A DNA stretch of 64,000 nt. Source: Gemmatimonadales bacterium. Lineage in GTDB: Bacteria; Gemmatimonadota; Gemmatimonadetes; Gemmatimonadales; JACORV01. The DNA lies in assembly GCA_036493755.1 (NCBI GenBank), contig DASXPG010000139.1, forward strand, positions 955 through 64,954, in the 5' to 3' direction. Shown one piece after another: positions 1 to 60,858 of the stretch. The notes beneath the pieces were generated by a model. That model was not told the origin of the DNA and did not search any database. It saw only the letters and a program-made list of their open reading frames with translations. Within the stretch, counting starts at the first letter, position 1. Each line of letters opens with the position of its first letter. A program made the position numbers and the translations under genes.

Positions 1-486
1 GAAGGCCGTGGCCATGCGGATTCGCGAGGCTGGTCCTGATTCCAGGTCCGCGGCGATGAAGAGCGGCAGCTTCGAGGCGCGCTGCAGGGCGTTGAACTTC
101 GCCGCCAGGTCGTAGGCCGAGCCGCCGAGGCCGACGACGAATCCGCCCACGCCTTCTTCGCGCACCAGCCGGAGCGCGGCGACCATCGGATCGGCGTCGG
201 CCGACCAGTACTCGCCGCTGAACCAGGGCATCACCAGCTGGCCGGCCTTTTCCCGCAGCGTCATCGTAGCCAGTGCCGGAATGGCGTCCAGCACTTCGCG
301 CGGCGGCGGCACGGTGAGGTCGGGCAGGGGAATCAGCGCTGCCTCGACGGGAGTGTCGGGCATCGGAAAGACCGGCGCCGGCTCGACGCGGCCCGCATGC
401 GCACAGGCGGTTGCGAACAGGAGCGCAAATACGTGGGAACGCGGGAAGGCAGGAACGTACGAACGTTGCGACCTAACCTGCATCAT
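1..486 (-). CDS. Glycoside hydrolase family 3 (beta-N-acetylhexosaminidase-like) lipoprotein, N-terminal part; runs off the window edge
   Basis: Not in the ORF track. Manual translation: MMQVRSQRSYVPAFPRSHVFALLFATAC...MTLREKAGQLVMPW...EGVGGFVV...NALQRASKLPLFIAADLESG, which is the GH3 N-domain pattern (MTLxEKxGQL, PLxIAADxExG). Lipobox-like FATAC. Start uncertain. Confidence 0.85.
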   Translation of the reverse strand, partial: MMQVRSQRSYVPAFPRSHVFALLFATACAHAGRVEPAPVFPMPDTPVEAALIPLPDLTVPPPREVLDAIPALATMTLREKAGQLVMPWFSGEYWSADADPMVAALRLVREEGVGGFVVGLGGSAYDLAAKFNALQRASKLPLFIAADLESGPASRIRMATAF

Positions 487-558
487 CGGGGCTGGGTGCT
501 CCTTGGCTGCCTTCTCGGGCTCGTTCCCCGTTCCCACGTTCCCACGTTCCAACGTTCC
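431..558. repeat. Inverted pair of degenerate octamer arrays (ACGTGGGA)n / (TCCCACGT)n
   Basis: 431-470 acgtggga acgcggga aggcagga acgtacga acgttgcg; 525-555 tccccgt tcccacgt tcccacgt tccaacgt. The units are reverse complements. Confidence 0.8.
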
Positions 559-1680
559 GTTGTCCTTCCTGGGATCGATGGTCTCCTCACCGATTCGGCG
601 CACCTGCTCGCCGGCAAGCGCATCGGCCTCATCACCAATCAGAGCGGCATCGACGCACACGGCGTCTCCACGATCGATCGCCTGCAGCACTTCAGGCTTC
701 GCGGTTCGCGCCTGGTTTCTCTTTTCGCCCCAGAGCACGGCATCCGCGGAAATGCTGCCCCCGGCGCCTCGGTGCACGACACCACCGACAGAGCGACCGG
801 CCTCCCAATCTATAGTCTGTACGGAGCAAATCGAGCGCCGAGCGCGGCGCAGATGGCGAAGCTCGACGTGCTGGTCGTGGATCTCCAGGATGTCGGCACC
901 CGCACCTGGAGCTACGTCTCGACCACCATCTTTGCGATGCGCGCGGCGAAGACCGCCGGCAAGCGAATCATCGTCCTCGACCGGCCCAATCCGATTGGCT
1001 GCGCGATGCAGGGTCCGATACTCGATACCGCTTTCAGCTCGATGATCGGCCCGCTGCCGGTGCCGCTGCGCCATGGCATGACGATGGGCGAGCTGATGCG
1101 CTTCGCCAATGCCGAGCTGGGGATCGGCGCCGATCTGGTCGTGGTGCCGGTCAAAGGATGGCATCGCTGCGAGTGGTTCGACGAGACGGGACTGCCCTGG
1201 GTCCCGCCGTCGCCGAACTTGCGCGACCTCGATGCCGTGGCCTGGTATCCCGGCACGGTGCTCATCGAGGCGACCAACCTGTCGGTGGGGCGGGGGACGG
1301 ACGAGGCCTTTCGGGAGATGGGCGCGCCGTGGCTGAAGACCCCGCGAGAGGCGTATGGCTATCCCAACGGTGACACTCTCGAACACGTCACCTTTACCCC
1401 GCACGCGCCGGGAGACGGCAAGTATGACGGTGTCAGCTGCGCCGGGGTGCGGTTCTGGCGCAACAATCGTCGTTATGCCGGCGGTCCCATCCTCGAGGTC
1501 ATCAGGGTGTTACGATTGCTGGCCCAATCCAATCGGGATTCGCTGCGCGTAGACTCGAGCATGATGACGACGCGATTCGGCCGGGCCTGGAATGCCGATT
1601 CGGCCCTGGCGTGGGCCAGCGACCAGAGGGCCCTGGCCGCCTTTCGGATCCGAGTCCGGCCCTACCTTCTGTATCTATGA
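466..1680 (+). CDS. namZ: Exo-beta-N-acetylmuramidase NamZ family (DUF1343)
   Basis: GKRIGLITNQSG, LFAPEHGIRG, YSLYG, DLQDVGTR, VLDRPNP, RHGMTMGE, WVPPSPN, SVGRGT motifs. TTG 466 chosen over ORF-track ATG 397; start uncertain. Confidence 0.9.
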   Translation: MRPNLHHRGWVLLGCLLGLVPRSHVPTFQRSVVLPGIDGLLTDSAHLLAGKRIGLITNQSGIDAHGVSTIDRLQHFRLRGSRLVSLFAPEHGIRGNAAPGASVHDTTDRATGLPIYSLYGANRAPSAAQMAKLDVLVVDLQDVGTRTWSYVSTTIFAMRAAKTAGKRIIVLDRPNPIGCAMQGPILDTAFSSMIGPLPVPLRHGMTMGELMRFANAELGIGADLVVVPVKGWHRCEWFDETGLPWVPPSPNLRDLDAVAWYPGTVLIEATNLSVGRGTDEAFREMGAPWLKTPREAYGYPNGDTLEHVTFTPHAPGDGKYDGVSCAGVRFWRNNRRYAGGPILEVIRVLRLLAQSNRDSLRVDSSMMTTRFGRAWNADSALAWASDQRALAAFRIRVRPYLLYL

Positions 1681-1713
1681 CCCACTTGCGCCCTGCCAAC
1701 GGGTCACAAGTGG

Positions 1714-6289: not shown

Positions 6290-6409
6290 ATGACAGCGAC
6301 CCGGGTGATCGTCACGCTGATGGGATTGGCGGCGATCGCCTGGGTCCTCTGGTATTTTCTGGCCACCCCACGCCCCGCGCACCTCGCACCACGCCCCCCT
6401 TCGCCATGA
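6290..6409 (+). CDS. 39-aa single-TM small protein translationally coupled to copA
   Basis: Below the ORF-track cutoff. [39 protein letters not shown]; its TGA overlaps the copA ATG (ATGA, 6406-6409). Confidence 0.65.
6364..6398 (+). repeat. Degenerate heptamer array
   Basis: cacccca cgccccg cgcacct cgcacca cgccccc. Confidence 0.55.
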
Positions 6410-8958
6410 GCACCCGTTTCATCTTCCCCGTCACCGGCATGCATTGCGCCGGCTGCGCCGCGAGCGTGCAGAAGCGCCTCGCCGCGGTCCCGGGGGTGAA
6501 GGGTGCCGCGGTCAATCTCGCGACCCGCAAAGCCACGGTGGACTGGGAAGGCAACGGCGGCGCGGCGCCGCTTTTTGTCGACGCCGTCCGCTCGGCGGGC
6601 TACGACGTCGCCACCGAGGTGATCACGGCGCCGGTGTCGGGGCTGCGCTTTTCGCCCACATCGAGGCTCGAGGCCGCGGTCGCGGCCGTCCCCGGCGTCC
6701 AGTCGGTGCAGGTGAATCCCGCCGCCGAAACGGTGCGCGCGGTGGTGGTGACGGGGCTCGCCGGCGCTGAGGCAATCGCGGACGCGGTACAGGGTGCCGG
6801 CTTCGTCCTCTCGGCGCCGATCGCCGCCGATGATCCCGCCCTGCGCGAGCAACAGGCGTTGGCGAGAGAACGGCGCGAAGTGGGATGGCGCGCGCTGATC
6901 ACGCTCTTCGCCGCCGCGATTGCGATGACGTTGTCGATGCCGCTCATGGCCTCCTCGGCGATGCGTTCCACCGATCTCTTCAGCCGGCTGATGATGCCGC
7001 TGACCCGGACGGTTCAGCGGCTCGCGCCGCCGCTCTTCATCCTCGAGCCGGGCACGCTGCGCTGGCTGCTGTTCGCCGTGACGCTGCCGGCGGTGCTCTG
7101 GGCCGGCGGGCGGATCTTCACGGCAGCCTGGCGCGGCTTTCGTCATCGCAGCGCCGACATGAATACGCTGGTCAGCGTCGGGGTCAGCGCCGCGCTGCTC
7201 TATTCGGTCGCCGCGACCGCGATTCCGGGCGTCTTCACCGATGCCGGACTCCCCGCCGATGTGTACTACGAAGCCGTCACCATGATTCTTGGCCTGGTGC
7301 TTCTGGGCCGCTGGCTCGAGGCCTGCGCCAAAGGCCGCGCCGGTGATTCGTTGCGCCGGCTCGCCGAGCTGGGGGCAAAGACGGCGTGGGTGGTGCGCGG
7401 CGGGGAAGAGCTGGAGATCCCGGCCGCCGAAGTTGCGGTGGGCGACCTGGTCCAGGTTCGGCCCGGCCAGCGGATTCCGGTGGACGGTCGCGTGACCGAA
7501 GGCCAGTCGCCGGTGAACGAGTCGATGCTGACCGGCGAGCCGATCCCGGTCGCCAAGTCTCTCGGCAGCGACGTCTACGCGGGAACGCTGAACACCACCG
7601 GAGGGCTGATCTTCGAGGCCACCGGCGTGGGTCCGGCAACGGCATTGGCGCGCATCGTCAGGCTGGTCGAAGAAGCGCAGGGAAGTCGCGCTCCCGTGCA
7701 GCGGCTGGCGGATCGGGTCGCCGGGATCTTCGTCCCGGTCGTCATCTCGCTGGCGATCGCGGCATTCGTGATCTGGTTCGACGTGGGCCCGTCGCCGCAC
7801 TTCCTCAATTCGACCGTCGTTTTCGTCACCGTGCTGATCATCGCCTGCCCTTGCGCGATGGGCCTGGCGACGCCGACCGCGATCATGGTCGGCACCGGCC
7901 GCGGTGCGGAAGAAGGCGTGCTGGTGAAGGGGGGCGCGGCGCTGGAGGCGGCGGGGACCGTCACCGCGGTCGTCCTCGACAAGACCGCCACGATCACGGA
8001 AGGCCGGCCTGCGGTGACCGACGTCATCGTGAGCCGGCGGGCGGACGGGCCGGCGGGCAGCGAGCCCGAGTTCACCGAGGACGAGGTCGTCCGGATCGCG
8101 GCGGCGGTCGAGCGCTGGTCGGAGCATCCGCTGGCGGCGGCGATCGTGCGCGAGGCGGAGGTCCGGAGCCTGACGGTGCCGACCGCGGCGCTCTTCAACG
8201 CGGTCGAGGGACGCGGAGCGGCAGCGACGGTCGATGGCCGGCAGGTCATGGTGGGAAGCGCCGCATTTCTCATCGAGAGCGGCGTCGACATTGGCCCGCT
8301 GACCGATGCGATCGACCGGCTCGCGGCACGCGCGCGGACGCCGGTGCTCGTCGCGGCGGACAACAAACCGGTCGGGCTGCTTGGCCTCGCCGACCCGATA
8401 AAGCCCACGGCGGTGGCGGCGGTCCGGCAGATGCGGAAGATGGGCTATCACCTCGTCATGGTCACCGGCGACATCCGCAAAGCGGCGATCGCCGTGGCGG
8501 GCGAGGTCGGGATCGACGAGGTCGAGCCGCAACTTCTCCCGGGCGGCAAGGTCGAAATCGTCAGGCAGCTGCAGCGCTCGGGCTACAAGGTCGCGATGGT
8601 CGGCGACGGCATCAACGACGCCCCGGCTCTCGCTGCCGCCGACGTCGGCGTGGCCATCGGCACCGGGACGGATGTGGCCATCGAGGCCGCCGATCTCCTG
8701 CTGATGCGGGGCGACCTGAGCTCCCTCGTGGCGGCACTGGAACTGTCGCGCCGGACCCTCCGTACGGTGCGACAGAACCTGTTCTGGGCCTTCGCCTACA
8801 ATGTGGTCGGGATCCCCGTGGCGGCGGGTGCGCTCTTTCCGGTGTGGGGAGTGCTGCTCTCGCCGGTCTTCGCGAGTGCCGCGATGGCGCTGTCGTCGCT
8901 CACGGTGGTGTCGAACAGCTTGCGCTTGAGGCGATTCAGGCCGACCCTGTCCACCTGA
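6406..8958 (+). CDS. copA: Heavy-metal (Cu+) P1B-1 ATPase
   Basis: N-terminal GMHCAGC, degenerate second HMA domain, LTGEP, CPC, DKTATIT (sic), [14 protein letters not shown] and MALSS. Confidence 0.93.
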
Positions 8959-10120: not shown

Positions 10121-10145
10121 CTTCGGGCCGGTGGGCTGATAAATT

Positions 10146-10168
10146 GGGGGGCGAGATCATCGCCCCCC
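10146..10168. other. Intergenic GC-rich stem-loop without U-tract
   Basis: GGGGGGCGA gatca TCGCCCCCC, 9-bp stem. Confidence 0.5.
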
Positions 10169-10191
10169 TCACTGTCTCCGGGAGCCTTACG

Positions 10192-16135: not shown

Positions 16136-17566
16136 ATGGCTCGAATCGATGTCATCATGCCCCAGATGGGCGAGTCCATCGCCGAGGGGACCCTCTCGAA
16201 GTGGCTCAAGAAGGTCGGCGACGCGGTCAAGCGCGACGAGATGATCTTCGAGATCAGCACCGACAAGGTGGACGCCGAGATTCCGGCGCCCTCCGCCGGC
16301 ATTCTGGCCGAGATCAAGGTGCCGGAGGGGAAGACCGTGCCGGTGCAGACGGTGGTCGCGGTGATCGAGACCGAGGCAAGCGTCGGGGCGAGTCCGGCAG
16401 CGCCACGCGCGACTGTTCCAGCGGCGTCCGCGGGGTCGAGTGCGGTTGCGTCGAGTGCGTCGTCGCCCGCGAAAGCAGCAGCGGCGCCTGCCCCTGCAGC
16501 TGCCCCTTCTGCCCCTGTTTCTGCATCACCCAGAGCCCCGCAGACCCTGACTCCTGCTGCTGCCACGCTGAGGCCTGCGCCTACAGGCAACGGGACCGAA
16601 ACCGCCGACGATCGTCTGCGCCGTCTCTCGACTCCGCTGGTTCGGAAGATTGCCGCCGAGCATAACGTGGAGATCGCCGGCATCCCCGGCTCCGGCCACG
16701 CGGGCCGCGTGACCAAGAAGGACATCCTCGGCTTCATCGAGAGCGGGGCGCCGTCCTCGCCTGCGCCTCCTGTCTCTCCTGCCTCTCCGGTCTCGCGCTC
16801 TGCGGCATGGCCGGAAGGCGCACCCTCTGCCTCGAATCCCGCTTGGGAAGCTTCCCCCTGGGAGGGTGACCGGGTCGAGCCGATGAGCCGCATCCGCCAG
16901 CTCACCGCCGAGCACATGGTTTTCTCGCGCCGTACCTCGGCCCACGTGACGAGCTACTACGAAGTCGACATATCGGCCATCCAGAAGTTGCGCGAGAAGA
17001 ACAAGAAGCTCTACGAGGAGCGCGGCGCGAAGCTGACCTATCTCGGCTTCATCGTGAAGGCCGTGGCCGACAATCTGCGCAAGCATCCGATTGTGAACGC
17101 CGCGGTGCAGGGGACCAGCATCATCTACCGTGGCCAGATCAACATCGGCATCGCGGTGGCGCTCGACTGGGGCCTCATCGTGCCGGTCATCAAGAAGGCC
17201 GACGAGCTGTCGCTGCTGGGCGTGGTGAAGACGATGCACGATCTCGCCGATCGGGCGCGGGCCAAGAAGCTCAAGCCCGACGAAGTGCAGCAGGGCACCT
17301 TCACCATCACCAACCCCGGCGTCTTCGGTTCATACATCGGCGCGCCGATCATCAACCAGCCGCAGGTCGCGATCCTCGGCGTGGGCGCGATCGAGAAGCG
17401 GCCGCGGGTGGTGACGATGGAGGACGGCACCGAGGCCATCGTGCCCCGGATGATGACGATGCTGTCGATGACCTATGATCATCGCGTCGTCGACGGCGCC
17501 GACGCCGACCGCTTCTTCGGCGACGTGAAGAAGATGCTCGAGAGCTTCCCGGCGGCGGCGGTCTGA
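16136..17566 (+). CDS. Dihydrolipoamide acyltransferase E2
   Basis: Lipoyl EISTDKVD, E3-binding TPLVRKIA...GRVTKKD, GTFTITN, catalytic DHRVVDGA. Confidence 0.93.
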   Translation: MARIDVIMPQMGESIAEGTLSKWLKKVGDAVKRDEMIFEISTDKVDAEIPAPSAGILAEIKVPEGKTVPVQTVVAVIETEASVGASPAAPRATVPAASAGSSAVASSASSPAKAAAAPAPAAAPSAPVSASPRAPQTLTPAAATLRPAPTGNGTETADDRLRRLSTPLVRKIAAEHNVEIAGIPGSGHAGRVTKKDILGFIESGAPSSPAPPVSPASPVSRSAAWPEGAPSASNPAWEASPWEGDRVEPMSRIRQLTAEHMVFSRRTSAHVTSYYEVDISAIQKLREKNKKLYEERGAKLTYLGFIVKAVADNLRKHPIVNAAVQGTSIIYRGQINIGIAVALDWGLIVPVIKKADELSLLGVVKTMHDLADRARAKKLKPDEVQQGTFTITNPGVFGSYIGAPIINQPQVAILGVGAIEKRPRVVTMEDGTEAIVPRMMTMLSMTYDHRVVDGADADRFFGDVKKMLESFPAAAV

Positions 17567-23867: not shown

Positions 23868-25028
23868 ATGGTCACCACCGCCGCGCCGAGCCTTCCCGGG
23901 CTCTCTCCCGAAGAGCGGCAGCGCTACGCGCGGCATCTCGCGCTTCCCGAAGTCGGCGCCGAGGGCCAGCGCCGGCTCAAGGCGGCCCGGGTGCTGGTTG
24001 TCGGCCTCGGCGGACTTGGCTCTCCCGCGGCGCTTTATCTCGCCGCGGCCGGCATCGGCAGCATCGGGCTCGTCGATCACGACGCCGTGGATCTCACCAA
24101 TCTTCAGCGCCAGGTCTTGCACGGCACCAGCGATGTCGGTCGCTCCAAGCTCGCGTCGGCCGTCGATCGTCTCCGCGACCTGAATCCGCTGGTCCGCCTA
24201 ACGACGCACGACGCACGACTCACGGCCGCCAATGCCCTGGCCACGCTTCAAGGCTACGACGTCGTGCTGGATGGCAGCGACAATTTTCCGACCCGCTACC
24301 TCGTCAACGATGCCTGCGCGCTCCTCGGCATTCCCGATGTGTACGGCAGTATCCATCGCTTCGAGGGGCAGGTGTCGGTTTTCTGGAAGGGGCACGGTCC
24401 CTGTTACCGTTGCCTCTACCGCGACCCGCCGCCCGCCGAGCTGGTGCCGTCGTGCGAAGCAGGCGGCGTGCTGGGTGTGCTTCCCGGCATTGTCGGGTCG
24501 CTCCAGGCGGCCGAGACGATCAAGATCGTTCTCGGTGCCGGCGATCCGCTGATCGGCCGGCTGCTGCTCTTCGACGCCCTGCCGATGACGTTCCGCGAGC
24601 TGGCGATCGATGCCGATCCGTCGTGCCCGTTGTGCGGCGCCCACCCGACCATTCAGAGTTTGATCGACTACGACGCCTTCTGCGGCGCCCAGTCACCCAA
24701 GGAGCCTCGATCGATGGAGCTGAGCCCGCTGGAATTGCAGTCCGAGCTCGCCGGAGCGAAACCGCCGACGATTCTCGACGTGCGTGAGGAGTGGGAATTC
24801 GAGATCGCCAGTATCGAGGGCAGCACGCTCATTCCGTTGGCGACCATTCCGGGAATGATCCCCGAGCTGGATCCGGCGGGGACGTACGTGACGGTCTGCC
24901 ACAAGGGTGCGCGTTCGATACAAGCGGCGCGCTTCCTGAAGGCATCGGGAATCGCCGATGTGAGGAGCTTGCGGGGCGGCATCGAAGCGTGGGCCGCCGA
25001 GGTAGACTCGGGCATGGAGCGATACTAA
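23868..25028 (+). CDS. moeB: MoeB/MoeZ adenylyltransferase with C-terminal rhodanese domain
   Basis: RYARHL, GLGGLG, TNLQRQ, DNFPTR, CYRC, PSC, CPLC; rhodanese DVRE...CHKGARS. Confidence 0.92.
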   Translation: MVTTAAPSLPGLSPEERQRYARHLALPEVGAEGQRRLKAARVLVVGLGGLGSPAALYLAAAGIGSIGLVDHDAVDLTNLQRQVLHGTSDVGRSKLASAVDRLRDLNPLVRLTTHDARLTAANALATLQGYDVVLDGSDNFPTRYLVNDACALLGIPDVYGSIHRFEGQVSVFWKGHGPCYRCLYRDPPPAELVPSCEAGGVLGVLPGIVGSLQAAETIKIVLGAGDPLIGRLLLFDALPMTFRELAIDADPSCPLCGAHPTIQSLIDYDAFCGAQSPKEPRSMELSPLELQSELAGAKPPTILDVREEWEFEIASIEGSTLIPLATIPGMIPELDPAGTYVTVCHKGARSIQAARFLKASGIADVRSLRGGIEAWAAEVDSGMERY

Positions 25029-25040: not shown

Positions 25041-25124
25041 GCCGGAGTGGTGGAACTGGTAGACGCGCTGCGTTCAGGGCGCAGTGGGCGCAAGCCCGTG
25101 TCGGTTCGAGTCCGACCTTCGGCA
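25041..25124 (+). tRNA. tRNA-Leu(CAG), CCA not encoded
   Basis: Acceptor GCCGGAG/CTTCGGC, anticodon stem CTGCG-ttCAGgg-CGCAG, long variable arm GGGC-GCAA-GCCC, T-arm GTCGG TTCGAGT CCGAC, discriminator A. Confidence 0.96.
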
Positions 25125-25130: not shown

Positions 25131-25172
25131 ACTGAGGCCAGCGGCCAGTCGCCACTGGCCTCTGGCCTTAGT
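25131..25172. repeat. 19-bp hairpin built of heptamers (possible terminator/processing signal)
   Basis: actgaggccagcggccagt cgcc actggcctctggccttagt, with one G-U pair and one mismatch. Confidence 0.7.
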
Positions 25173-26478: not shown

Positions 26479-27956
26479 ACGGTCGCCACAGAGGCCAAGT
26501 GAGCAGTCTGTTGCGGCTGGGTACTTGCCTTGTGGCGACTGTGGCGACTGCTGGCTGCGTCTACTACAACGGCATGTACAACGCGCGGCATTTCGCCGGG
26601 CAGGCCGAGCGTTCCGAGCACCTCGGCCGAACCAGCGAGGCCGCCGATCGGTGGCGCATCGCCGAAATCCACGCGGAGTCGGTGGTCACCCGGCACCCGC
26701 GCTCGAAGTGGGTCGGCGAGGCCCAATTGGTTCGCGCCCGGGCGCTGGTCCACCTCGAGTCGTGGACCATGGCGGCAATTGCCGCCGAGCAGGCGCGGCG
26801 CGTGGTGCATAGCGAGGAGGAGCGGCGCGAAGCCTGGCTCTACCTCGGTCTCGCCGATGTCGGGATGCATCAGACGGAGCCCGCGGTCAACGCCCTCGAC
26901 TCCGCCGCGCTCACCAAGGATCCCAAGCGCCGCTCCGAGGCGTACCTGGCTCGCGGCCGGGTGCTGCTCGCGGCGGGGCGGCCCAGTGATGCGCTGGTCG
27001 ATCTGCGGCAGTCGCGGGCGGTGGACGCGATCTTCGAGCGCGCCCGCGCGGCACTGGCCGAAGGGGACGTCGACCTCGCGGGCAGCACCGCCGACACCGT
27101 CGCGCAACGCGTGGAATACCAGGAGCAGCGATGGCTCCCGTTCCTCGATAGTCTCGCCAATCATGATTCCGCGGCGGCGCGCCGACTCACCGACGTGATC
27201 GTGGCGCGCGCCGACGTGCGTTCCGGGCCCAAGGCTCGGTTGCTGCTCGCCGACGGCGACCGCCGTCTGGCCGCGGGCCAGGACTCGGCGGCGGCTGCCC
27301 GCTTCGCGCAGATTCGCGCGCTCGTTCCCGACAGCGTCGAGTCGCGCATCGCCGATCTCAGGCAGGTGCGGCTCGATCTTCGGGTCGCGCCGACGCCGGC
27401 TGATCTGGCTCCGTTGCGGCGACGCCTGGTCATCATTGCCCTGGCCGGCGGCAGCCCGACCGCCGAAGCCACGGACCTGGTTCGCCTGGTCGACTACTCC
27501 GACAGCCTCGCCGGCCTTCCGGGTCCCGCCGACGCGTGGTGGTTCCTGCGGGGCGAGCTGCTGCGCGACTCGATCGGCGCGCGCCAGGCGGCGGCCAATG
27601 TCTTCGGACTCATGCCGGCGCAATTTCCTGACTCGCCGTGGACTCCGAAGGGGATTCTCGCGGCGATCGCCCTCGGCCATCCCGCCGCGGATTCCCTGCG
27701 CGCGCTGCTCGACGCTCGTTATGCATCGAGTCCCTATACCGTTGCCGCCGCCGGCGGCCTCGAGGGTGCCGACCGCTTCACGGTGCTCGAGGACTCGCTG
27801 CGGACGACGCTGGATCTGCTGCGTCCGGCGGCCGCCCAGCCGGGCAACGTGGCCGGACCGCAGGACGACGTTCCCACCCGCGGCCGCAATCCGGCGATCC
27901 AGCGTCCCCGCCCGCAACCGGGCCGGCCTGCGCCGCGGCCGACCCTCGATCCGTGA
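26475..27956 (+). CDS. TPR-like lipoprotein
   Basis: TAGC lipobox followed by VYYNGMYNA, HPRSKW, helical Ala-rich repeats, FPDSPW. Confidence 0.75.
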   Translation: MNGRHRGQVSSLLRLGTCLVATVATAGCVYYNGMYNARHFAGQAERSEHLGRTSEAADRWRIAEIHAESVVTRHPRSKWVGEAQLVRARALVHLESWTMAAIAAEQARRVVHSEEERREAWLYLGLADVGMHQTEPAVNALDSAALTKDPKRRSEAYLARGRVLLAAGRPSDALVDLRQSRAVDAIFERARAALAEGDVDLAGSTADTVAQRVEYQEQRWLPFLDSLANHDSAAARRLTDVIVARADVRSGPKARLLLADGDRRLAAGQDSAAAARFAQIRALVPDSVESRIADLRQVRLDLRVAPTPADLAPLRRRLVIIALAGGSPTAEATDLVRLVDYSDSLAGLPGPADAWWFLRGELLRDSIGARQAAANVFGLMPAQFPDSPWTPKGILAAIALGHPAADSLRALLDARYASSPYTVAAAGGLEGADRFTVLEDSLRTTLDLLRPAAAQPGNVAGPQDDVPTRGRNPAIQRPRPQPGRPAPRPTLDP

Positions 27957-29712: not shown

Positions 29713-30096
29713 ATGGCACGTATCGCGGGTGTCGATCTTCCGCGCGAAAAGCGCGTCGAGGTCGGTTTGACGGCGATTTTCGGCATCGGTCGCGCGACGG
29801 CGCTGACGGTTCTCGAGCGGACCGGCGTTGCGCCGGCGACGCGCGTGCGCGATCTGACGGACGCGGAGGTTGCCCGGCTGCGCCAGGCGATCGAGCGCGA
29901 CCTCAGGGTCGAAGGTGCGTTGCGCACCGAAGTCGCCATGAACATCAAGCGGCTGATGGATATCGGCTGCTACCGTGGCGTGCGTCATCGCCGCGGACTG
30001 CCGGTGCGTGGTCAGCGGACCCGCACCAATGCGCGCACCAAGAAGGGTCCGCGCCGGACGATCGCAGGCAAGAAGAAGGCGACGCTCAAGAAGTAA
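29713..30096 (+). CDS. rpsM: 30S ribosomal protein S13
   Basis: [32 protein letters not shown]. Confidence 0.98.
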
Positions 30097-30134
30097 CTTT
30101 CGAACGTTAGAACGTTCAAACGTTAGAACGTTCG
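30095..30134 (+). repeat. Five degenerate octamers AACGTT(AG/CG)
   Basis: aactttcg aacgttag aacgttca aacgttag aacgttcg. Confidence 0.8.
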
Positions 30135-30152
30135 TGGTAAGGGAGAATCATT

Positions 30153-32327: not shown

Positions 32328-32684
32328 ATGCGGCATCGCGCCAAGCACAAACAGCTTTCACGCACCAGCTCGCACCGGCGCGCGCTGCTGTCGAACATGG
32401 CGACCAGCCTCTTCAAGCACGGCCGGATCGTCACCACGGTGACCAAGGCCAAAGAGCTGCGTCCCGTCGCCGAAAAGCTGATTACCCTCGCCCGCCGCGG
32501 TGATCTCCACGCCCGCCGGCTGGTGGAGCGCCGAATCCGCGACAAGGAAGTGAGCACCGCGCTCTTCAAGGAAATCGGCCCGCGTTTCGCGGCCCGGCCC
32601 GGCGGCTACACCCGGATCATCCGGATGGGGCACCGCCAGGGCGACGGGGCGGAGACGGCGCGGATCGAGCTGTTGGCGGAATAG
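32328..32684 (+). CDS. rplQ: 50S ribosomal protein L17
   Basis: MRHR...[22 protein letters not shown]. Confidence 0.97.
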
Positions 32685-32704
32685 CTTGACGGCTTGACCA
32701 AAAC

Positions 32705-32736
32705 GACAAAGCCCCGGACTCCCCGGGGCTTTTGTC
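32705..32736. terminator. Probable bidirectional intrinsic terminator between rplQ and rpmB
   Basis: gacaaa-GCCCCGG-actcc-CCGGGGC-ttttgtc. Confidence 0.8.
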
Positions 32737-32765
32737 TAGCAGTCTAGCAGTCTAGCAGTCTAGCC
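32734..32765 (+). repeat. Octamer tandem repeat (GTCTAGCA)x3 plus GTCTAGCC
   Basis: Read directly; the last unit contains the rpmB stop codon. Confidence 0.9.
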
Positions 32766-38238: not shown

Positions 38239-38239
<1 letters not shown>

Positions 38240-49187: not shown

Positions 49188-50148
49188 GACGGCCGCAACA
49201 GTCGCCACAGTAGTGCACCGCGAACCGTGCACCGGTGACAGTTCACTACGGCGGCGACTGTGGCGACTGTGCACTGTCGTGTTGGCGGCTGTGGCGACTG
49301 TGAACTGTTCCAGGGGCACCGATCACGAACGCCTGGGCGACCGTCGCTACGCCGAGCAGTCCTGGGTGGATGCATTGGCGGAGTACCGGCTCGCGGCGCG
49401 GCAGCATCGCCCGACCTCGGCGCTCCGGGCCAAGACCGGCGCCGCCGCCCTGCACGCCGGCGAACTCGATGAGGCCGCCGCGGCTTACGCCGATCTCGGT
49501 CTCGACCGGGCCCGGAGCAGCGAAGCCTCCGACGGCCTGGTGCGCACCGCCCGCTCCGCTATCGCCGCGCGCGACGTGGCGGCGTTGCGGCTGGCGCTCG
49601 GCGGATTGCGCCGGCTCGCGCCGACGAGGCTGGCCGAGCTGGGTCCCGGTCTCGCGTTAGGGGCGCTCGATCCGCGCGGCGCGCCACAGCCCGATCTGCT
49701 GCTGGCCGCCGGAGCGGCCGCGTCGGGTTCGCTCGCCGATTCGCTGATCGGCGTCTGGGCCGACGCCACCAGCCGCATCGGCCGCTGCGATCTGGCCGCG
49801 CGCGCCTTCGACGCGCTGATCCGGCGCTCGAGTGAGCCGGCGGTGACCCGCGTCGCCAAGAGCGGCCTCGCGGGATGCCGGGTCGATGCCGGGCGCGCCG
49901 CGCTGGCCTCGGGCCAGCTCGACGTCGCCGAAGGGCAGTTCCGCGCCGCCATCACGATCGGCGTGCCGGATAGCATCATGCGACTGGCCTGGGTGTTGCT
50001 CGGCGACACCAAGTGGGCCGGCGGTGACACCGCGGTGGCGATCGAGTCGTATCGCAAAGCGATCACCGGCGCGGACGATGACAACCCGATCGCGCAACGC
50101 GCGCGCGAGCAGCTGCAGCGGCTCACCGGGAACTCAGACTCGACTTGA
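49180..50148 (+). CDS. TPR-like putative lipoprotein
   Basis: VVLAAVATVNC then DHERLGDRRY, helical repeats; start uncertain. Confidence 0.7.
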   Translation: MDKTAATVATVVHREPCTGDSSLRRRLWRLCTVVLAAVATVNCSRGTDHERLGDRRYAEQSWVDALAEYRLAARQHRPTSALRAKTGAAALHAGELDEAAAAYADLGLDRARSSEASDGLVRTARSAIAARDVAALRLALGGLRRLAPTRLAELGPGLALGALDPRGAPQPDLLLAAGAAASGSLADSLIGVWADATSRIGRCDLAARAFDALIRRSSEPAVTRVAKSGLAGCRVDAGRAALASGQLDVAEGQFRAAITIGVPDSIMRLAWVLLGDTKWAGGDTAVAIESYRKAITGADDDNPIAQRAREQLQRLTGNSDST

Positions 50149-50164
50149 GGGTATTTTGAAGGCT

Positions 50165-50923: not shown

Positions 50924-51464
50924 CTTCGACCCGATTCACCACGGGCATCTCATCGCGGCGGATCGGGCGGCGGAAGCCCTGGGACTCGACCTGGTGCTGT
51001 TCGTGCCGTGCGCCCGCCAGCCCCTCAAGTCCCAGGACCCCGCCGCCACGGCCGACCAGCGGCTCGCGATGCTGCGGCTCGCCATCGGCGGCTACCCGCG
51101 CTTCCAGGTCGAGACCTGCGAGCTGGAGCGGCCCGCGCCGTCGTACACCGTGGACACGTTGCGGCTGCTGCGCTCGCGCCGGCCGGATGAGCGCCTGGTG
51201 CTGATCATGGGTGCCGATGCCGCGGCCTTGCTTGGCCGCTGGCGCGCCGCCGACGAAGTCGCGCGCCTCGCGGAGATCGCGGCGCTCACCCGTCCCGGCG
51301 CCCCCGACGTCACGTCGGCGTTCGTGAAGCACCTGGTGGCCACGCCCGCCATCGAGATTTCGGCGAGCGATATCCGCGCGCGCTGCCTGACGGGGAAGAG
51401 CATTCGCTATCTCGTGCCGGAATCGGTTGAGAAGTACATCTCTAAATACGGACTCTATCAGTGA
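50898..51464 (+). CDS. nadD: Nicotinate-nucleotide adenylyltransferase
   Basis: GGSFDPIHHGH, SYTVDTL, IMGAD, ISASDIR, YLVP. Confidence 0.95.
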   Translation: MATGLLGGSFDPIHHGHLIAADRAAEALGLDLVLFVPCARQPLKSQDPAATADQRLAMLRLAIGGYPRFQVETCELERPAPSYTVDTLRLLRSRRPDERLVLIMGADAAALLGRWRAADEVARLAEIAALTRPGAPDVTSAFVKHLVATPAIEISASDIRARCLTGKSIRYLVPESVEKYISKYGLYQ

Positions 51465-51483
51465 TTGAAGTGCGCAGTAGTAT

Positions 51484-51568
51484 GCAGACGCCTCAGGCGC
51501 CGCAGTGGTTGGCAGCCATCGGTGCCCGGTACAGGACGGTGGCGCCTGTTGCGTCTGTGGCGTCTGCA
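51484..51568. repeat. Inverted nonamer arrays upstream of secA
   Basis: gcagacgcc tcaggcgcc gcag ... tggcgcctg ttgcgtctg tggcgtctg ca. Confidence 0.7.
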
Positions 51569-51582: not shown

Positions 51583-54906
<3,324 letters not shown>

Positions 54907-54909: not shown

Positions 54910-56187
54910 CTAACGCAGCTTCCACAGCACGGCGCGGCGCGGCCCATTGTCGTTGACGTCGCCGCTCCAACCCACCACGTCGCCTCGGTCGTTGATGGCC
55001 GTGGCGGCGCTCGAAGGCCCCAGCGGTCCGGCCCCCAGGTCGATCATCTGACTGCCGTTCCACACGAAGGCGTGCATCTGGTTCGGGCCCGTCGTCGTTG
55101 CGCCGATCACTGAACCCTGCACATTCATGCCGGACACCCAGCCGTCGCCGAGAGTGGCGAATTCGACCGCAGTCCCGTTGCTCCATCGCCAGCCGCGCCA
55201 TGGTCCGCCCGAAATCGATTGCCCCGCGATCTGTCCCTGGTCATTGATGAACATGGCGTACGCATCATGGCCGGCGTTGACGCCGAGGTCTTTCATCGTT
55301 CCGCTCTGCCATATGAAGGGCCGCGAGTGGTTGTCCGGAATGTTGCCGGTGTAGCTGGTGCCCACGATCGTGCCGCTGGCGTTGATGCCCGCGGCGTAGC
55401 CGGTCGAGCAGTCCTGGGTGGATGGATCACTACAGGCCGAACTGCCCAGGGTGCCGAGGTCACGGAGCGACCCATTCTCCCAGAGAAACGGATGCAGAAC
55501 GTCGCTGGAGCCGAATTGCTGGACCAGACTGCTGCCGACGATCTGGCCACCGGCGTTCATTGCCGCGGCCTGGGTGCGGTGGACACTGGCGTTGAAAGCG
55601 CCAAGGTCGGTCTCGGTTCCGTTGCTGTAGAGCTTGGCAGTGCTCAGGGCCGTGACATCGTTATAGGAGACGTTCGCCAGCAGGCCGGCGCTCCTGATGT
55701 CGACCACCGTGACGCTCACCGCGCCCAAGCGCGACATCGGCATCGGGGTGCGCGTGCCGCTGGCGGCGTCCCAGGTCACCACGTACTTGCTGCTTGCATC
55801 CTGGGTGTAGCCGCCGATGACGCCATTGGGGATGACCTGCGCGCTGCTGGTGTAGCCGTTGGCGCGGCCGGAGAGCTCCGTCAGCGTGCCATTCTGCCAG
55901 ATGAAGGCGCGGCTGCCGCTGGTCCCCACCACGCGGCCACTATTGTCGATCGCCTGGGCCACCGAAGTCGTGGCGCTGTCGATTGCACCGAGATCGATCG
56001 CCTGGTACGTACCCGTGGTTGGTGGCGGCGGTGGCGGAGGTGGCGTTGGCGGTGGCGGCGGTGGAGCGGGTGGCGGCGCGGGCGGAGTGACGGAGACCGG
56101 GGTGTTTGAGTCGTGACACGCGGCGGCACCAAGAAGCGACAATATCAGGATAATCCTGAATGCGGGAAGGTCGACACGAGCCTTCAT
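54910..56187 (-). CDS. Lipoprotein with poly-Pro linker and extracellular HAF-type repeats
   Basis: GGAG SD, LGAAAC lipobox, PPAPPP linker, repeated A..IN..G.IVG.S...(H/R)(A/P)F.W..G...DLG. Confidence 0.85.
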   Translation of the reverse strand: MKARVDLPAFRIILILSLLGAAACHDSNTPVSVTPPAPPPAPPPPPPTPPPPPPPPTTGTYQAIDLGAIDSATTSVAQAIDNSGRVVGTSGSRAFIWQNGTLTELSGRANGYTSSAQVIPNGVIGGYTQDASSKYVVTWDAASGTRTPMPMSRLGAVSVTVVDIRSAGLLANVSYNDVTALSTAKLYSNGTETDLGAFNASVHRTQAAAMNAGGQIVGSSLVQQFGSSDVLHPFLWENGSLRDLGTLGSSACSDPSTQDCSTGYAAGINASGTIVGTSYTGNIPDNHSRPFIWQSGTMKDLGVNAGHDAYAMFINDQGQIAGQSISGGPWRGWRWSNGTAVEFATLGDGWVSGMNVQGSVIGATTTGPNQMHAFVWNGSQMIDLGAGPLGPSSAATAINDRGDVVGWSGDVNDNGPRRAVLWKLR

Positions 56188-57080: not shown

Positions 57081-58502
57081 GTGATTTTCAATTCGCTGAC
57101 CTTCATCCTCTTCTTCGCCGTGGTCCTGGGTGTCTACTACCTGGTGCCCATGTCCTGGCGCGCGAAGAAGTGGTTCATCCTGCTGGCCAGCTACGTCTTC
57201 TACGCCGCCTGGAATCCGCCTTTCGTCCTGCTGCTGATGGCATCCACCGTAATCGACTGGGTGGTTGCCAACCGCATGGCCAGCACCAGGAATCACTACG
57301 GCCGGCGCTTCCTGCTGCTGGTGAGCCTGGTCTTCAACCTCGGCGTACTGGCCTTCTTCAAGTACGGCGGCTTTCTCCTCGATAACTTCGCCGTGCTGAT
57401 GCACTCCATCGGCATCGCCTACCAGCCGCCGGTGTGGAGCATCATCCTGCCGATCGGCATCTCGTTCTACACCTTCCTCACGCTGTCCTACACCATCGAC
57501 GTGTACTTCAAGGTGATGGAGCCGGTGGACTCGCTCCTCGACTACGCCTTCTTCATCACCTTCTTTCCGCACCTGGTGGCGGGGCCGATCATCCGCGCCG
57601 CCGACTTTCTGCCGCAGGTGACGCAGGAGCGGCGCGCCAACAAGGACCAGATGGGCTGGGGCCTGGTCCTCATGACCATCGGGCTCTTCGAGAAGACCAT
57701 TCTCGCCGACGGATTTCTGGCTCCCTTTGCCGATCGCGTCTACTCGGCCGCGGCGCACGCCGGTTTCGCCGACGCCTGGCTCGGCACCCTCGCCTTCTCG
57801 GCCCAGATCTTCTTCGACTTCGCCGGCTACTCGACCTGCGCCATCGGCGCCGCGCTGTGCCTGGGCTTCGTGCTGATGGACAATTTCCGCTATCCGTACG
57901 CGGCGATCGGCTTCTCCGATTTCTGGCAGCGCTGGCACATCTCGCTGTCGACCTGGCTGCGTGACTACCTCTACATCCCGTTAGGCGGCAACCGGCGGGG
58001 CGCCATGCGTACCCGCGTGAACCTGATGATCACCATGCTGCTCGGCGGGTTGTGGCACGGCGCCGCCTGGCGCTTCGTGGTCTGGGGCGGCCTCCACGGC
58101 AGCTATCTCGTCGTGGAGCGGCAGGCGAAGGACCGCTGGGGTGCGCGGGCGCTGTGGACCGGCCGCGGCGCGCGGGTGGTGCTGGCGTTGCTGACCTATG
58201 CCGCCGTGTGCCTGACGTGGGTCTTCTTTCGCGCTCCGACGCTGGCTGCCGCCCGGCACGTGTCGGGGTCGATGCTGACCGGAGGCCACGATTCGCACCT
58301 CCTCGGCACGCTGGGCCGGAGCATCATCGTGGCGCTCACCGCGGTGCTGCTGACGACCCACTGGTGGCTGCGCGACAGCAGCATCGAAGCGAAGTGGCAG
58401 GCGATGTCGCCGTGGGTCAGGGCCACGGCGCTGACCGCGATGCTGGTGAGCCTCTGCCTGGTTTCCGGGGACGCGCGTGCGTTCATCTACTTCCAGTTCT
58501 GA
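57081..58502 (+). CDS. MBOAT O-acyltransferase, AlgI/PatA-like
   Basis: MIFNS, LPIGISFYTF, FFPHLVAGPI, DFAGYS, FWQRWHISLSTWLRDYLYIPLGG, GLWHGA, FIYFQF. Confidence 0.93.
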   Translation: MIFNSLTFILFFAVVLGVYYLVPMSWRAKKWFILLASYVFYAAWNPPFVLLLMASTVIDWVVANRMASTRNHYGRRFLLLVSLVFNLGVLAFFKYGGFLLDNFAVLMHSIGIAYQPPVWSIILPIGISFYTFLTLSYTIDVYFKVMEPVDSLLDYAFFITFFPHLVAGPIIRAADFLPQVTQERRANKDQMGWGLVLMTIGLFEKTILADGFLAPFADRVYSAAAHAGFADAWLGTLAFSAQIFFDFAGYSTCAIGAALCLGFVLMDNFRYPYAAIGFSDFWQRWHISLSTWLRDYLYIPLGGNRRGAMRTRVNLMITMLLGGLWHGAAWRFVVWGGLHGSYLVVERQAKDRWGARALWTGRGARVVLALLTYAAVCLTWVFFRAPTLAAARHVSGSMLTGGHDSHLLGTLGRSIIVALTAVLLTTHWWLRDSSIEAKWQAMSPWVRATALTAMLVSLCLVSGDARAFIYFQF

Positions 58503-59526
58503 CGACCGGCTGCCGCGCGGCGGCTGGGGACGCACCTGGCGGCTGACGCTGCTGGGACTCGTGATCCTGCTCGGTGGACTCGAGCTCACCTGGCGGATAA
58601 AGGGTTACTACGCCCAGGTCTACGGCGCCGACGAATCGTGGATACTCTCCTTCGCCCAGCTCTCGCACGCAACCAGCGTCGCTCTGGGGACCTCGCGCAT
58701 CCAGGCCGCGCTCGATCCACAGGCCTGGCAATCGGTGATGGGCGGCAAGCCGCCGATCGACCTCGCGCTGCCAGGGAACGCGCCGCTGCCGATTCTGGAC
58801 TACATCGCCGATTCGACCGACTATCGCGGCACGGTGCTCGTCGAAGTCCTGCCGCTTGATGCCTTCGACGCCAGGCAGCAGGGTGCGCCCCGCGGCCGCG
58901 GCCTCCTCGACCGTTACGACCGCGATCGCGTCAGCCCCGCGAGCATGAGCGAGGCCTGGCTCCAGGTTCACCTGCTGCGGTTTTTCGTCTTCCGTTCGCC
59001 GGAGCTGTTGCCGTCGGAATTTTTCAAGCGACTCGGCACCGGCGAGCTGATGCCCGACAAGGGACTGCTCCACCTGCGCACGGACCGCTTCGGTCCCATC
59101 CAGCAGAAGAAGTTCATCGCCACCAACAAGTGGGATCCTCAGCGCGGCTTCTACGAAATCGGGCACGCCGGCGCGGAGCACGAAGGCCGGGTCCCGACTC
59201 CCGAGGAGTTCGACGCGCTGCGCGGGCGCTACTACCGGATCGCGCGGGTGATCCAGGGACGCGGTGGCCGCGTGGTGTTCCTGCACCTCGCCGGCTGCGG
59301 CGAGCGCGGGGCGATCGAAGCGCGGCGCTATCCGCGCGCGACTTTCTGGGATCCCTTCGCGCGGCAATCGCCGGCGCTGGCGCTGGCGACAGAAGATTTC
59401 CCCGAGCTGCAGCATTTCGCCTGTTATGATGGCTCGCACATCGACGCGACCGACGCCGCGGCCTACAGCCGCGCCCTGGCGACTGTCGTGAAGGCGCAGC
59501 TCCAGGCATCAGGAGGCACCAGATGA
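58477..59526 (+). CDS. Membrane-anchored SGNH-like acyl-transfer partner (AlgJ/DltD-like role)
   Basis: SSTSSS start overlapping the MBOAT FIYFQF end, one TM helix, GTSR and DGSH motifs. Confidence 0.7.
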   Translation: MRSSTSSSDDRLPRGGWGRTWRLTLLGLVILLGGLELTWRIKGYYAQVYGADESWILSFAQLSHATSVALGTSRIQAALDPQAWQSVMGGKPPIDLALPGNAPLPILDYIADSTDYRGTVLVEVLPLDAFDARQQGAPRGRGLLDRYDRDRVSPASMSEAWLQVHLLRFFVFRSPELLPSEFFKRLGTGELMPDKGLLHLRTDRFGPIQQKKFIATNKWDPQRGFYEIGHAGAEHEGRVPTPEEFDALRGRYYRIARVIQGRGGRVVFLHLAGCGERGAIEARRYPRATFWDPFARQSPALALATEDFPELQHFACYDGSHIDATDAAAYSRALATVVKAQLQASGGTR

Positions 59527-60812
59527 AGCCAGGCACCAGGGCGTTGTGGCGGGTGAGTCTGCTCGCGTCGTTAGGCGCCGCTGCGTCGTGCGGCGGCAAG
59601 GGTGACGGGACTACCACGGGCGGGCCCACCGGTGCTCCGGCCGCCACCCAGCTCGCCATCGTGACGCAACCGGCCGGAGCGGTCGATGGCACCAGCTTCA
59701 CGACCCAGCCGGTCGTCCAGGTGCGTGACGCCAGCGGCGCGCTGGTCGCCGGATCGACCGTGTCGGTGACCGCGTCCATCGCTTCCGGCACCGGCATGCT
59801 GTCCGGCAGCACGACGGTCGCGGCGGTGGCGGGCGTCGCGATTTTCACCAACCTCAAGATTGCGGGAACCGGTAACGACCAGCTGACCTTCACGTCGAGC
59901 GGGCTGACGGCGGCCACGTCGAGCTCGATCTCGGTGTCCGCGGCCGGCGGGGGCGGGGGCGGGGGCGGAGGCGGCACGCTGCTCTTCAGTGAGGCCTTCG
60001 AGGATAACAGCCTGACGTCGCGGGGTTTCTACGACAACTCCGCGGCATTCACGACCGTCACCGCCGAGGCCCATGGCGGGACCAGATCGCTCCAGGTCCA
60101 GTTCAACAGCGGCGCCACCGGCACCTCGTGGGTCGGCACGCGTCACAAGTTCACGCCGACCGCGTCGGTCTATCTCAGCTACTGGGTGAAGTACAGCACC
60201 AACTGGGTGGGATCCGGGCAGAACTTCCACCCGCACGAGTTCTATTTTCTGACCACCGATGACGGTGACTTCTCGGGTCTCGCCGACACCCACCTGACGA
60301 TGTACGTGGAGCACAACTACCAGGCGACCGGCGGGTTCCCCCAACTGGGGTGGCAGGATGGTCTGAATATCGATCAGACCAAGGTCAACGTGAACCTGAT
60401 CGGGACCACGGAGAACCGTGCGGCATCCGGCTGTAACGGGAACGCCGACGGCATCGTGGGCGATTGCTACGATTCGGGCGGGGGCGTGTACCTGAACGGC
60501 AAGCAGCTGCGCACCAGCCAGTCCTATTTCCTGCCGACTCCGGGCACCGGGTACAAGAACGACTGGCACCACGTGGAGGCCTACTTCCAGCTCAACTCCA
60601 TCGTGGCCGGCATCGGCCAGACGGACGGCATCGCGCGGTACTGGTTCGACGGAACCCTGGTCATCGAGAAGACCAATGCCCAGTTCCGGACCGGCGCCCA
60701 TGCGACCATGCTCTTCAACCAGCTGATCCTGGCGCCCTACATCGGCTCTCCCGGGTCGCCAGTGACGCAGTCGGCTTTTTACGACGACCTGATGGTGAAG
60801 ACCGCACCATAG
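59523..60812 (+). CDS. Lipoprotein with Ig-like domain, poly-Gly linker and beta-sandwich (polysaccharide lyase/ConA-like) domain
   Basis: AAASC lipobox; QPVVQVRD..G...G.A.FTNL; FSEAFE, VYLSYWVKY, WHHVEAY.QLN, DG....WFDG, YDDL. Confidence 0.7.
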   Translation: MKPGTRALWRVSLLASLGAAASCGGKGDGTTTGGPTGAPAATQLAIVTQPAGAVDGTSFTTQPVVQVRDASGALVAGSTVSVTASIASGTGMLSGSTTVAAVAGVAIFTNLKIAGTGNDQLTFTSSGLTAATSSSISVSAAGGGGGGGGGGTLLFSEAFEDNSLTSRGFYDNSAAFTTVTAEAHGGTRSLQVQFNSGATGTSWVGTRHKFTPTASVYLSYWVKYSTNWVGSGQNFHPHEFYFLTTDDGDFSGLADTHLTMYVEHNYQATGGFPQLGWQDGLNIDQTKVNVNLIGTTENRAASGCNGNADGIVGDCYDSGGGVYLNGKQLRTSQSYFLPTPGTGYKNDWHHVEAYFQLNSIVAGIGQTDGIARYWFDGTLVIEKTNAQFRTGAHATMLFNQLILAPYIGSPGSPVTQSAFYDDLMVKTAP

Positions 60813-60858
60813 AAACGGGCAGGGGCAGGGCGCAGGCGGCTTCTTATATTGAAGTGGC

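Follow-up and report, generated by a model that had tools for sequence, protein, structure and literature searches.

Dispersed 7- to 9-bp tandem arrays in a Gemmatimonadales genome resemble the arms of four-helix-bundle gene cassettes

In a 64,000-nucleotide stretch of the Gemmatimonadales bacterium assembly GCA_036493755.1 (contig DASXPG010000139.1, positions 955 to 64,954; hereafter the window, C139:955-64954 of genome G000), short tandem arrays with units of 7 to 9 bp are scattered among housekeeping genes, several of them as inverted pairs. On balance, sequence comparison leads us to favor the view that these arrays are gene-less copies of the arms of cassettes that carry a four-helix-bundle (FHB; PF05635/TIGR02436) gene, likely written into host DNA as templated patches of about 30 bp by a process that is likely selfish. 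The arrays fall into a limited number of families, have about four units per arm, end inward at a fixed position, and face inward toward a partner of the same family, and FHB genes lie between such arms. Arrays turn over in a lineage-specific manner at the same host sites, by insertions and by same-length replacements, and host sequence is kept between arms. The assembly comprises 3.15 Mb, with 67% GC, and is 81% complete. It was compared with six relatives of the genus (G001 to G006) and, more widely, within a set of 41 genomes that includes G000. Below, X denotes the inward-reading arm (plus strand) and X' its reverse-complement partner (minus strand).

Arrays of these periods are enriched throughout the genome. 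Tandem Repeats Finder (TRF) was run on G000 and on three controls (a fifth-order Markov sequence, a seventh-order Markov sequence, and a codon-block shuffle of the genome). It detected 142 arrays of period 7 (4, 6, and 6 in the controls), 122 of period 8 (27, 18, and 8), and 306 of period 9 (61, 79, and 124), whereas periods 10 and 11 showed no excess (55 versus 83, 61, and 39; 76 versus 92, 81, and 53). An independent detector gave 120, 89, and 114 arrays for periods 7, 8, and 9, against at most 3, 11, and 18 in the controls, and this second detector found 14 inverted array pairs in G000 versus none in any control. Genome-wide, the excess at periods 7 to 9 is roughly 2.5- to 60-fold over the three controls. 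The first-pass annotation of the window had staked its case on arrays and inversions exceeding those of shuffled sequence, as they do. Searches with 12 unit families recovered 298 arrays in G000 and 1 in the seventh-order Markov genome; after de-duplication, 13 families of 7, 8, and 9 bp comprise 271 arrays, with a median of 4.3 units above a detection floor of 3 units. The annotation had further proposed that a single process produces an architecture rather than one sequence, and the common geometry of the 13 families agrees with this. It was right that units differ within the window, but each well-formed window unit except that of the array at 30095, which has no further copy in G000, recurs as a dispersed family of 7 to 45 copies. 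GGGAATC is the unit of one such G000 family (9 arrays), and the GAGGCCA-type family has 9 members in G000 and 0 in the control.

The orientation of neighboring arrays is strongly biased. Same-family neighbors at most 350 bp apart were convergent in 35 cases, divergent in none, and tandem in 5; with a near-palindromic 7-mer group excluded, the counts were 17 convergent and 0 divergent, and for one family, whose orientation was set after its three pairs had been seen, we claim internal consistency only. Mixed-family neighbors were convergent, divergent, and tandem in 3, 3, and 1 cases. A convergent partner was detected for 76 of the 271 arrays, and the gaps within convergent pairs span −1 to 162 bp (at most 25 bp in 20 of the 35). 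Arms also tend to stop at one place in the unit: a single inner-end phase was found in 24 of 43 GACGGGCA arms (p = 5e-15) and 21 of 38 GTGCGTC arms, and the same non-periodic tail closes 11 of 19 9-mer arms. Because GACGGGCA is palindromic in letter order (it reads the same backwards), its controls, a reversed-pattern control and an 8-mer complement control (19 versus 12), were uninformative. Similarity within a pair did not exceed that between arms taken from different pairs (553 versus 564.7 ± 4.6 matches in 28 pairs, p = 0.996), a result that speaks against both fold-back copying and compensatory tuning.

The link to FHB genes comes from the wider genome set. Genes matching PF05635/TIGR02436 occur in 39 of the 41 genomes, with 140 matches in total. 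An automatic inverted-arm test was applied to 50 of these plus one outside locus, and the same unit lay inverted on both sides of the gene in 28 of the 51, versus 24 of 2,550 cross pairs (0.9%). The window itself contains no PF05635/TIGR02436 gene, as the first-pass annotation had noted while linking small genes of this kind to such flanking arrays; that link is now supported. In the G000 assembly the sole such gene lies at C72:4398-4676 (L001), between a transketolase-like and a fabH-like gene (both named by eye from their translations), and by eye it is flanked by GTCGACA arms that fall below the cut-off of the automatic test. Its last helix is missing, and the reading frame continues into the downstream arm; the orthologue in G004 (L007) is whole and has longer arms. 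The C72 cassette is a decay intermediate. Cassettes of G004 use the units GTCGACA, GCTGAAG, GCTTGACG, and GGGGAGACA.

Gene-less arrays often carry units of cassettes in the same genome: 13 of 16 in G004, 5 of 12 in G001, and 3 of 7 in G005 matched their own genome's cassettes, versus 1 of 16 G004 arrays matching G001 units, 5 of 16 matching G003 units, and 0 of 12 G001 arrays matching G004 units. Under the lenient criterion of at most one mismatch in a 7-mer, 11 of 23 G000 families, including the seven largest, match some cassette arm. The unit at secA, GACGGGCA, gives 25 pattern matches in G000 and 0 in the 40 relatives; of 117 outside GACGGGCA loci, 80 were examined, and among these one FHB gene (L170) was found, lying between GACGGGCA arms, and all six loci with a partner arm were convergent. 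The family of the rplQ unit is limited to G000 and G004 among the 41 genomes, and G004 has a cassette with that unit. For another unit, a single case, one match was present in the congener G012, in which no FHB gene was detected, versus 16 to 110 in four genomes that have its cassette. The FHB protein tree and unit type agree in places: a six-member clade with 100/100 support unites all four clear 9-mer cassettes of the genus with an unscored row and one 7-mer cassette.

Orthologous regions were aligned for about 10 sites, against a total of 80 in-gene arrays; rows in which the anchor motif could not be parsed were dropped (secA, 4 of 30 loci; IleRS, 1 of 30; MurG, 3 of 25; moeB, 3 of 25). Three site patterns were observed: hairpin insertion with new filler, arms placed around host DNA, and same-length overwriting. 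The annotation had suggested looking for empty sites in close relatives and had counted arrays conserved unchanged in distant orthologues as a refutation; among genus relatives, empty sites and sites with other units were both found.

Hairpin insertion is seen in an E1-alpha gene, where a 22-amino-acid (aa) in-frame insertion, absent from G002, G003, and G006, is a compact hairpin with new filler. At six window sites, genus relatives are empty or carry other units. The stop codon of rpsM is the starting point of a self-complementary 8-mer array with an AACGTT core (30092..30136) that lies before rpsK; a different 8-mer pair occurs here in G001 and a 7-mer arm in G004, and G003, G005, and G006 are empty. 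The 9-mer arm pair between nadD and secA (51484..51568; fold z −4.9) faces empty sites in G003 and G004 and other, mixed-unit pairs in G005 and G006. At 26482..26555 a 9-mer CAGTCGCC(A/G) arm pair occupies the lipoprotein-type signal of an open reading frame (ORF; 26475-27956, no Pfam match at 1e-6), where G001, G004, and G006 have three other 8-mer pairs and G002 and G003 are empty. Nested 9-mer arms at 49192..49302 lie in the lipoprotein-type signal of a TPR ORF (49180-50148), with GTCGACA in G004, a weak other unit in G001, and empty sites in G003, G005, and G006. A compact hairpin of 7-mer GAGGCCA-type arms (25131..25172; z −6.6) sits between tRNA-Leu(CAG) (25041-25124) and smpB, and G003, G004, and G005 carry other units there. 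In namZ (ORF 397-1680), an 8-mer GGGAACGT X arm (431..465, plus strand) in the 5' end or signal region and an in-frame X' arm (522..563, minus strand; z −2.9) past the hydrophobic signal core bracket that core; the site is empty in G003, G004, and G005, has a single arm of another unit in G006, and ends at a contig edge in G001.

In the second pattern, the sequence between the arms belongs to the host. The C-terminal linker of SecA contains an in-frame GACGGGCA X arm (54665..54710, plus strand), a host coding core (54711..54777, plus strand), and the X' arm (54778..54820, minus strand; z −3.6). Linker length is similar in G000 (116 aa), G001 (118), and G004 (114), the core motif is common to all three, and G001 has a different 8-mer in both arms. 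At rplQ, an GCTTGACN X arm (32684..32699, plus strand) begins at the stop codon, a terminator-like host hairpin follows (32700..32732), and an X' arm of four GTCTAGCA units closes the pair (32733..32765, minus strand). Arms stand on both sides of the rplQ terminator in G000, G001, G003, G004, and G005, as five different arm pairs, and by eye a similar terminator-like core lies between the other units in G001 and G004. The IleRS gene has two arms 173 bp apart around a conserved WTTTPWT segment; in G000, G001, and G005 the two places carry one unit, which differs from genome to genome, units are mixed in G006 and G016, and neither arm is present in most of the 29 aligned rows. MurG differs in unit between G000 and G003 at the same two places. 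(Two murG-like matches occur in each of G003 and G004, and one G004 copy has a 7-aa array-free insertion at the site of the G000 arm.) Units also vary between genomes in two linkers. That of RpiB holds different-unit pairs in G000, G001, G003, and G004; G005 has one arm there, and G006 lacks arms. A single minus-strand 9-mer GGAGAGACA arm lies in frame in the linker of E2 (dihydrolipoyl acyltransferase; 16756..16797; z 0), which shows five different states in five genomes, with another unit in each of G001, G004, G005, and G006.

Same-length overwriting is seen in moeB (ThiF family), where a single in-frame 7-mer GTGCGTC arm (24194..24228, minus strand), absent from the first-pass annotation, lies in a segment of 36 aa in all 22 parsed rows. 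Host codons are replaced: the array changes 7 to 11 of 24 bases compared with genus relatives (13 to 17 match), conserved residues are kept, and the site resembled the unit before the array. The annotation's statement that all arrays sit in tolerant places does not fully hold, since the moeB array is in an ungapped conserved segment. In IleRS the in-frame gain is about +8 to 10 aa, with the length of the second site unchanged in G000 and G005; in MurG the gain is +6 aa, and the second site is also unchanged in length.

These comparisons bear directly on the annotation's suggestion that the arrays are scars of a small mobile cassette, by which whole arm-FHB-arm cassettes, or short forms lacking the gene, enter the DNA and afterwards lose the gene or one of the arms. 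Several sites look as such scars should: the C72 cassette has lost its gene end while the orthologous G004 cassette is whole, compact hairpins such as that of E1-alpha bring new filler, the rpsM-rpsK and nadD-secA junctions are empty in some genomes and filled in others, and 20 of the 35 convergent pairs are compact. Scarring cannot account for arms that flank conserved host coding sequence (secA, IleRS, and MurG) or for same-length codon replacement (moeB), and random arm loss would also yield divergent pairs, of which there are none. We leave this idea a minor chance of being right; the host-bracketing pairs and the overwriting already refute it as a complete explanation.

A second explanation holds that the arrays are host-selected sites (binding sites or terminator or mRNA-decay hairpins) that arose by slippage and point mutation, with the FHB protein as a regulator. 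By the gene calls made in this analysis, 93 of the 271 arrays start at most 14 bp from a stop codon (about 7 expected), in 68 cases as X and in 25 as X', which together with the arms flanking the rplQ terminator in five genomes speaks for this view. Window pairs also fold well: eight sites reach z −2.8 to −6.6, including the six inverted pairs named in the first-pass annotation (z −2.8 to −6.6), the 30095 array (z −3.9), and a seventh pair at 32684-32765 (z −5.0), whose upstream arm that annotation lacks; no such folding is seen at 6364, at 60817, or for the single E2 arm. The earlier likeness of the moeB site to the unit suits stepwise selection as well, and stepwise selection of binding sites remains the main alternative for same-length overwriting. 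Yet the arms bear no sign of the compensatory fine-tuning expected of selected hairpins (553 versus 564.7 matches, as above), close relatives are empty at the same sites, and hairpin selection alone would leave polarity unfixed. Moreover, 80 of the 271 arrays lie deep inside called genes (about 196 expected if uniform), and codons are rarer in the array than in its flanks in 71 of 77 in-gene arrays. We regard host selection as quite unlikely to be the origin of the arrays.

Protein-independent replication errors, in which slippage builds an array and fold-back template switching makes its inverted partner, would do without any unknown enzyme; near-perfect hairpins occur among the compact pairs (25131-25172), and slippage probably does vary unit number, as the 7- to 9-copy arms of some cassettes suggest. 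However, private variants expected to be common to partner arms are not, and such errors leave unexplained the same unit at 7 to 45 dispersed sites, units confined to one or two of 41 genomes, the fixed inner end, and the match to cassette arms, which makes this origin very unlikely. A telomerase-like or other repeat-synthesizing polymerase that adds units de novo at nicks would fit the geometry if each strand were extended at a 3' end by the same unit, and arrays often begin at or overlap a stop codon, but we find it scarcely credible given that RVT_1 (PF00078) had no match in the 5 genomes searched, of which one is 100% complete, so that the reverse transcriptase (RT) form of the enzyme proposed in the annotation is not supported, that the flanks inspected hold no second gene between the FHB gene and the arms, and that the shared non-periodic tails suggest a longer template.

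The reading that we prefer, namely that the arrays are gene-less copies of cassette arms, fits the polarity, the fixed inner end, the family consensus, and the prior resemblance at moeB, all of which are compatible with templated patches of about four units taken from a donor arm. The FHB protein is predicted to recognize its own unit, and a pentameric ring would bind four to five units; this number suits a pentamer because the closest solved relative, 2GSC, has 5 chains and the related S23p protein is described as a homopentamer (PMC4990558). At a unit-like host site, a 3' end would then copy one arm from the donor, and the patch would be resolved as an insertion or an overwrite, the copying being carried out by host repair or recombination. 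An existing arm may favor a second, opposite-strand patch no more than a few hundred bases away, so that host DNA comes to lie between X and X'; since on either strand the unit runs 5' to 3' inward from the host flank, two opposite-strand events give X-host-X'. Old arms could seed rewriting when a new FHB/unit pair arrives, and patches would persist where tolerated, after stop codons and in signal peptides, loops, and permissive codons. More tentatively, FHB cassettes may form an RT-free genome-writing system whose variants direct their own unit onto both strands, replacing old sites. It is equally no more than possible that such patches, facing inward as in twin prime editing, insert into or overwrite essential genes.

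Were this genome-writing proposal true, it would unite bacterial heptamer repeats, ORF-bearing rRNA intervening sequences (IVS), and a steady source of new loop peptides. If writing occurs in one templated step, it would be a mutational process not yet described, by which housekeeping proteins are remodeled, and possibly a programmable DNA-writing tool. The several cassettes of G004, with their 13 matching gene-less arrays among 16, open protein-unit specificity to direct assay, and the orthologous sites offer before and after states, including same-length overwriting in moeB, IleRS, and MurG. In practical terms, the arrays yield lineage-specific peptides and false gene starts in annotation.

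Several observations weigh against the cassette-arm origin or against the strength of its tests. Matching to a genome's own cassettes failed in G003 (0 of 7 arrays), G006 (0 of 7), and G002 (0 of 1), for which 3 of 4, 2 of 4, and 0 of 1 cassettes were available. Twelve of the 23 G000 families (at least four members each) have no match among the 51 cassettes, the 9-mer family at 26482, 49192, and 51484 matches no cassette arm among them, and the leniency of the one-mismatch criterion counts here as well. G000 has a single truncated FHB gene for about 13 families in an assembly that is 81% complete, and an FHB gene was present at only 1 of the 80 outside GACGGGCA loci. That units track the FHB tree is predicted by co-inheritance alone. 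The end-phase tests are open to bias from the scoring scheme and the reading frame, and our gene calls are not those of standard annotation. Mixed-unit pairs occur (IleRS in G006 and G016, RpiB in G004, and nadD-secA in G005 and G006); because they keep purine-first polarity, site constraints may contribute to orientation. Finally, binding, nicking, and copying are steps that we infer, and no catalytic candidate emerged: RVT_1 was absent as stated, GxxExxY genes, the other type that the annotation had found missing from the window, occur in 0 of 7 genomes of the genus (12 of 41 overall), and the two Y1 transposase genes of G000 have no family array within 1.5 kb, all of these absences being limited by incomplete genomes. 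With no RT, no GxxExxY gene in the genus, and no array-flanked Y1 gene found, host enzymes acting with a DNA donor are the default.

Some further observations concern these gene types. Y1 genes were not found in G001, G003, and G008. In G000 they are IS200/RAYT-like (C161:3880-4280 and C71:6510-6910) and adjoin repeated palindromes that are possibly REP-like and have no relation to the array families. In wider relatives, GxxExxY genes (L317, L319, L320, L327, L328, and L333) are by eye bracketed by inverted 9-mer arrays whose units are unlike those of FHB genes, and so form another type of cargo in the same arrangement. In G000, distant arms (200 to 1,300 bp) showed no excess of other cargo over controls, and the cases opened held host genes. 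Single genes with 3 or 4 arrays of different families occur at C32:25316-26508 and C43:6470-7296 of G000, one of these multi-array genes being a radical-SAM gene with arrays at both ends; they may be hot spots of repeated writing.

Within the window, all ten stretches listed in the first-pass annotation and the E2 linker array are present, and 9 of the 11 flagged sites hold up. The two exceptions are a decayed 7-mer array before copA (6364..6398, minus strand; TRF score 33, z −0.2) and a weak, G-rich run that follows a stop codon and precedes relA (60817..60836, plus strand; TRF score 31, z −0.4); neither rises above noise, and each is at best a single arm in decay. Weak family matches with 4 mismatches, at a control rate of 0.6 per 64 kb, were seen for GACGGGCA in copA (8033-8061) and for CGTTGGC at the start of a cytochrome c gene (21727-21755). 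An Ala/Lys/Pro-rich N terminus at 38239-38450 has 9/18-bp periodicity and a Pro-coding GGTGGC run lies at 56021-56078; as candidate arrays, the periodicities at 38278-38446 and 56021-56078 were rejected for want of a family match and were taken as coding low complexity. The RpoA linker showed no array difference. An MBOAT acyltransferase gene and two genes without a Pfam match (57081-60812) separate radC from relA, which adjoin directly in G003, G004, G005, and G006, and two DUF2911 paralogues stand in tandem at 8972-11361. In G004 and G001 (L076 and L077), about 3.3 kb, absent in G000 and G003, separates the H+-PPase gene from copA; it contains, by eye, a PadR-like regulator and a permease-like gene, with arrays at the left junction. 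An assembly artefact was ruled out by the same layout with other units in relatives and by frames that stay open. One public run's contig matched window positions 48000-51503, across the nested arms at 49192, with 0 differences; the run is possibly the source sample, so the match is not independent. The other 23 runs contained small shares of the query, and in RNA runs the share did not exceed 0.08 of its words.

Dispersed short repeats have been met in other bacteria. Cyanobacterial STRR heptamers are comparable dispersed repeats at gene junctions, are direct repeats, and are of unexplained origin. The nearest likeness is to the heptamer repeats of Xanthomonas (GGGAATC) and Nostoc (GGGGA(C/T)T), whose excess is of unexplained origin (Rehm et al. 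2015, PMC4692102). According to the main text of that paper, these also have about 4 units, form convergent inverted pairs, and place a G-rich sense strand just past stop codons, but there is one unit per genome, 89 to 93% are intergenic in Xanthomonas, and they are discussed as G-quadruplexes (PMC4692102); "helix bundle" is absent from that main text. In contrast, G000 has about 13 families of 7 to 9 bp, with 80 of 271 arrays deep in genes, an FHB link, and species-specific replacement, and by inspection the units GTGCGTC, GCTTGACN, and GTCGACA contain no G-tract. The TAACTGA heptamers of Beggiatoaceae, also of unexplained origin, are dispersed sets of 2 to 6 copies at gene junctions, but as described in the main text they are direct repeats that hardly ever have an inverted partner and that lack a partner protein (PMC4679880).

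Also comparable are the ORF-bearing IVS of 23S rRNA, in which a PF05635-type gene lies within terminal inverted repeats and tandem heptamers stand upstream of the ORF (PMC4990558). Their S23p protein is described there as an FHB homopentamer, and its family as having no known function (PMC4990558). Such IVS are removed from the transcript by RNase III. The IVS share with our cassettes and window pairs inverted repeats with tandem units, and their distribution is likewise sporadic (PMC4990558). The cassettes here lie between operon genes, not in an rRNA helix, and the window arrays are gene-less, stand in or between protein genes or after a tRNA, and often have host sequence inside.

Rickettsia palindromic elements (RPE) and repetitive extragenic palindromic (REP) sequences with their REP-associated tyrosine transposases (RAYT) are small palindromic repeats near gene ends or in frame in functional proteins (PMC3733652). 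The in-frame gains in housekeeping proteins here (E1-alpha, IleRS, and MurG) are alike, as is the REPtron logic of a family-specific protein gene flanked by its own repeats (PMC3733652). However, those elements, as the source presents them, are copies of a single palindrome, tagged GTAG or CGTC, and have an HUH transposase (PMC3733652), whereas the G000 arrays have tandem arms and a free or host loop, some arms replace host bases, the FHB protein has no known catalytic motif, and the Y1 genes of G000 are not flanked by family arrays. Nor is there the conserved interior of a MITE-type transposable element between inverted arms here, and the degenerate ends of the arms make their boundaries unsure. 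Unlike an Avd/RT retroelement of the diversity-generating kind, the system has no RT gene (PF00078 in 0 of 5 genomes), and the FHB protein matched the Avd model only weakly (20.6 bits; cut-off, 80).

Set against the G000 arrays, the Xanthomonas repeats, the 23S IVS, and the RPE each fail a defining feature. Among open-access main texts, supplements aside, we found no paper that joins FHB genes to dispersed arrays or describes overwriting. What this analysis would chiefly add to these known systems is comparative evidence of arms apparently written around and over host sequence and swapped unit by unit between species.

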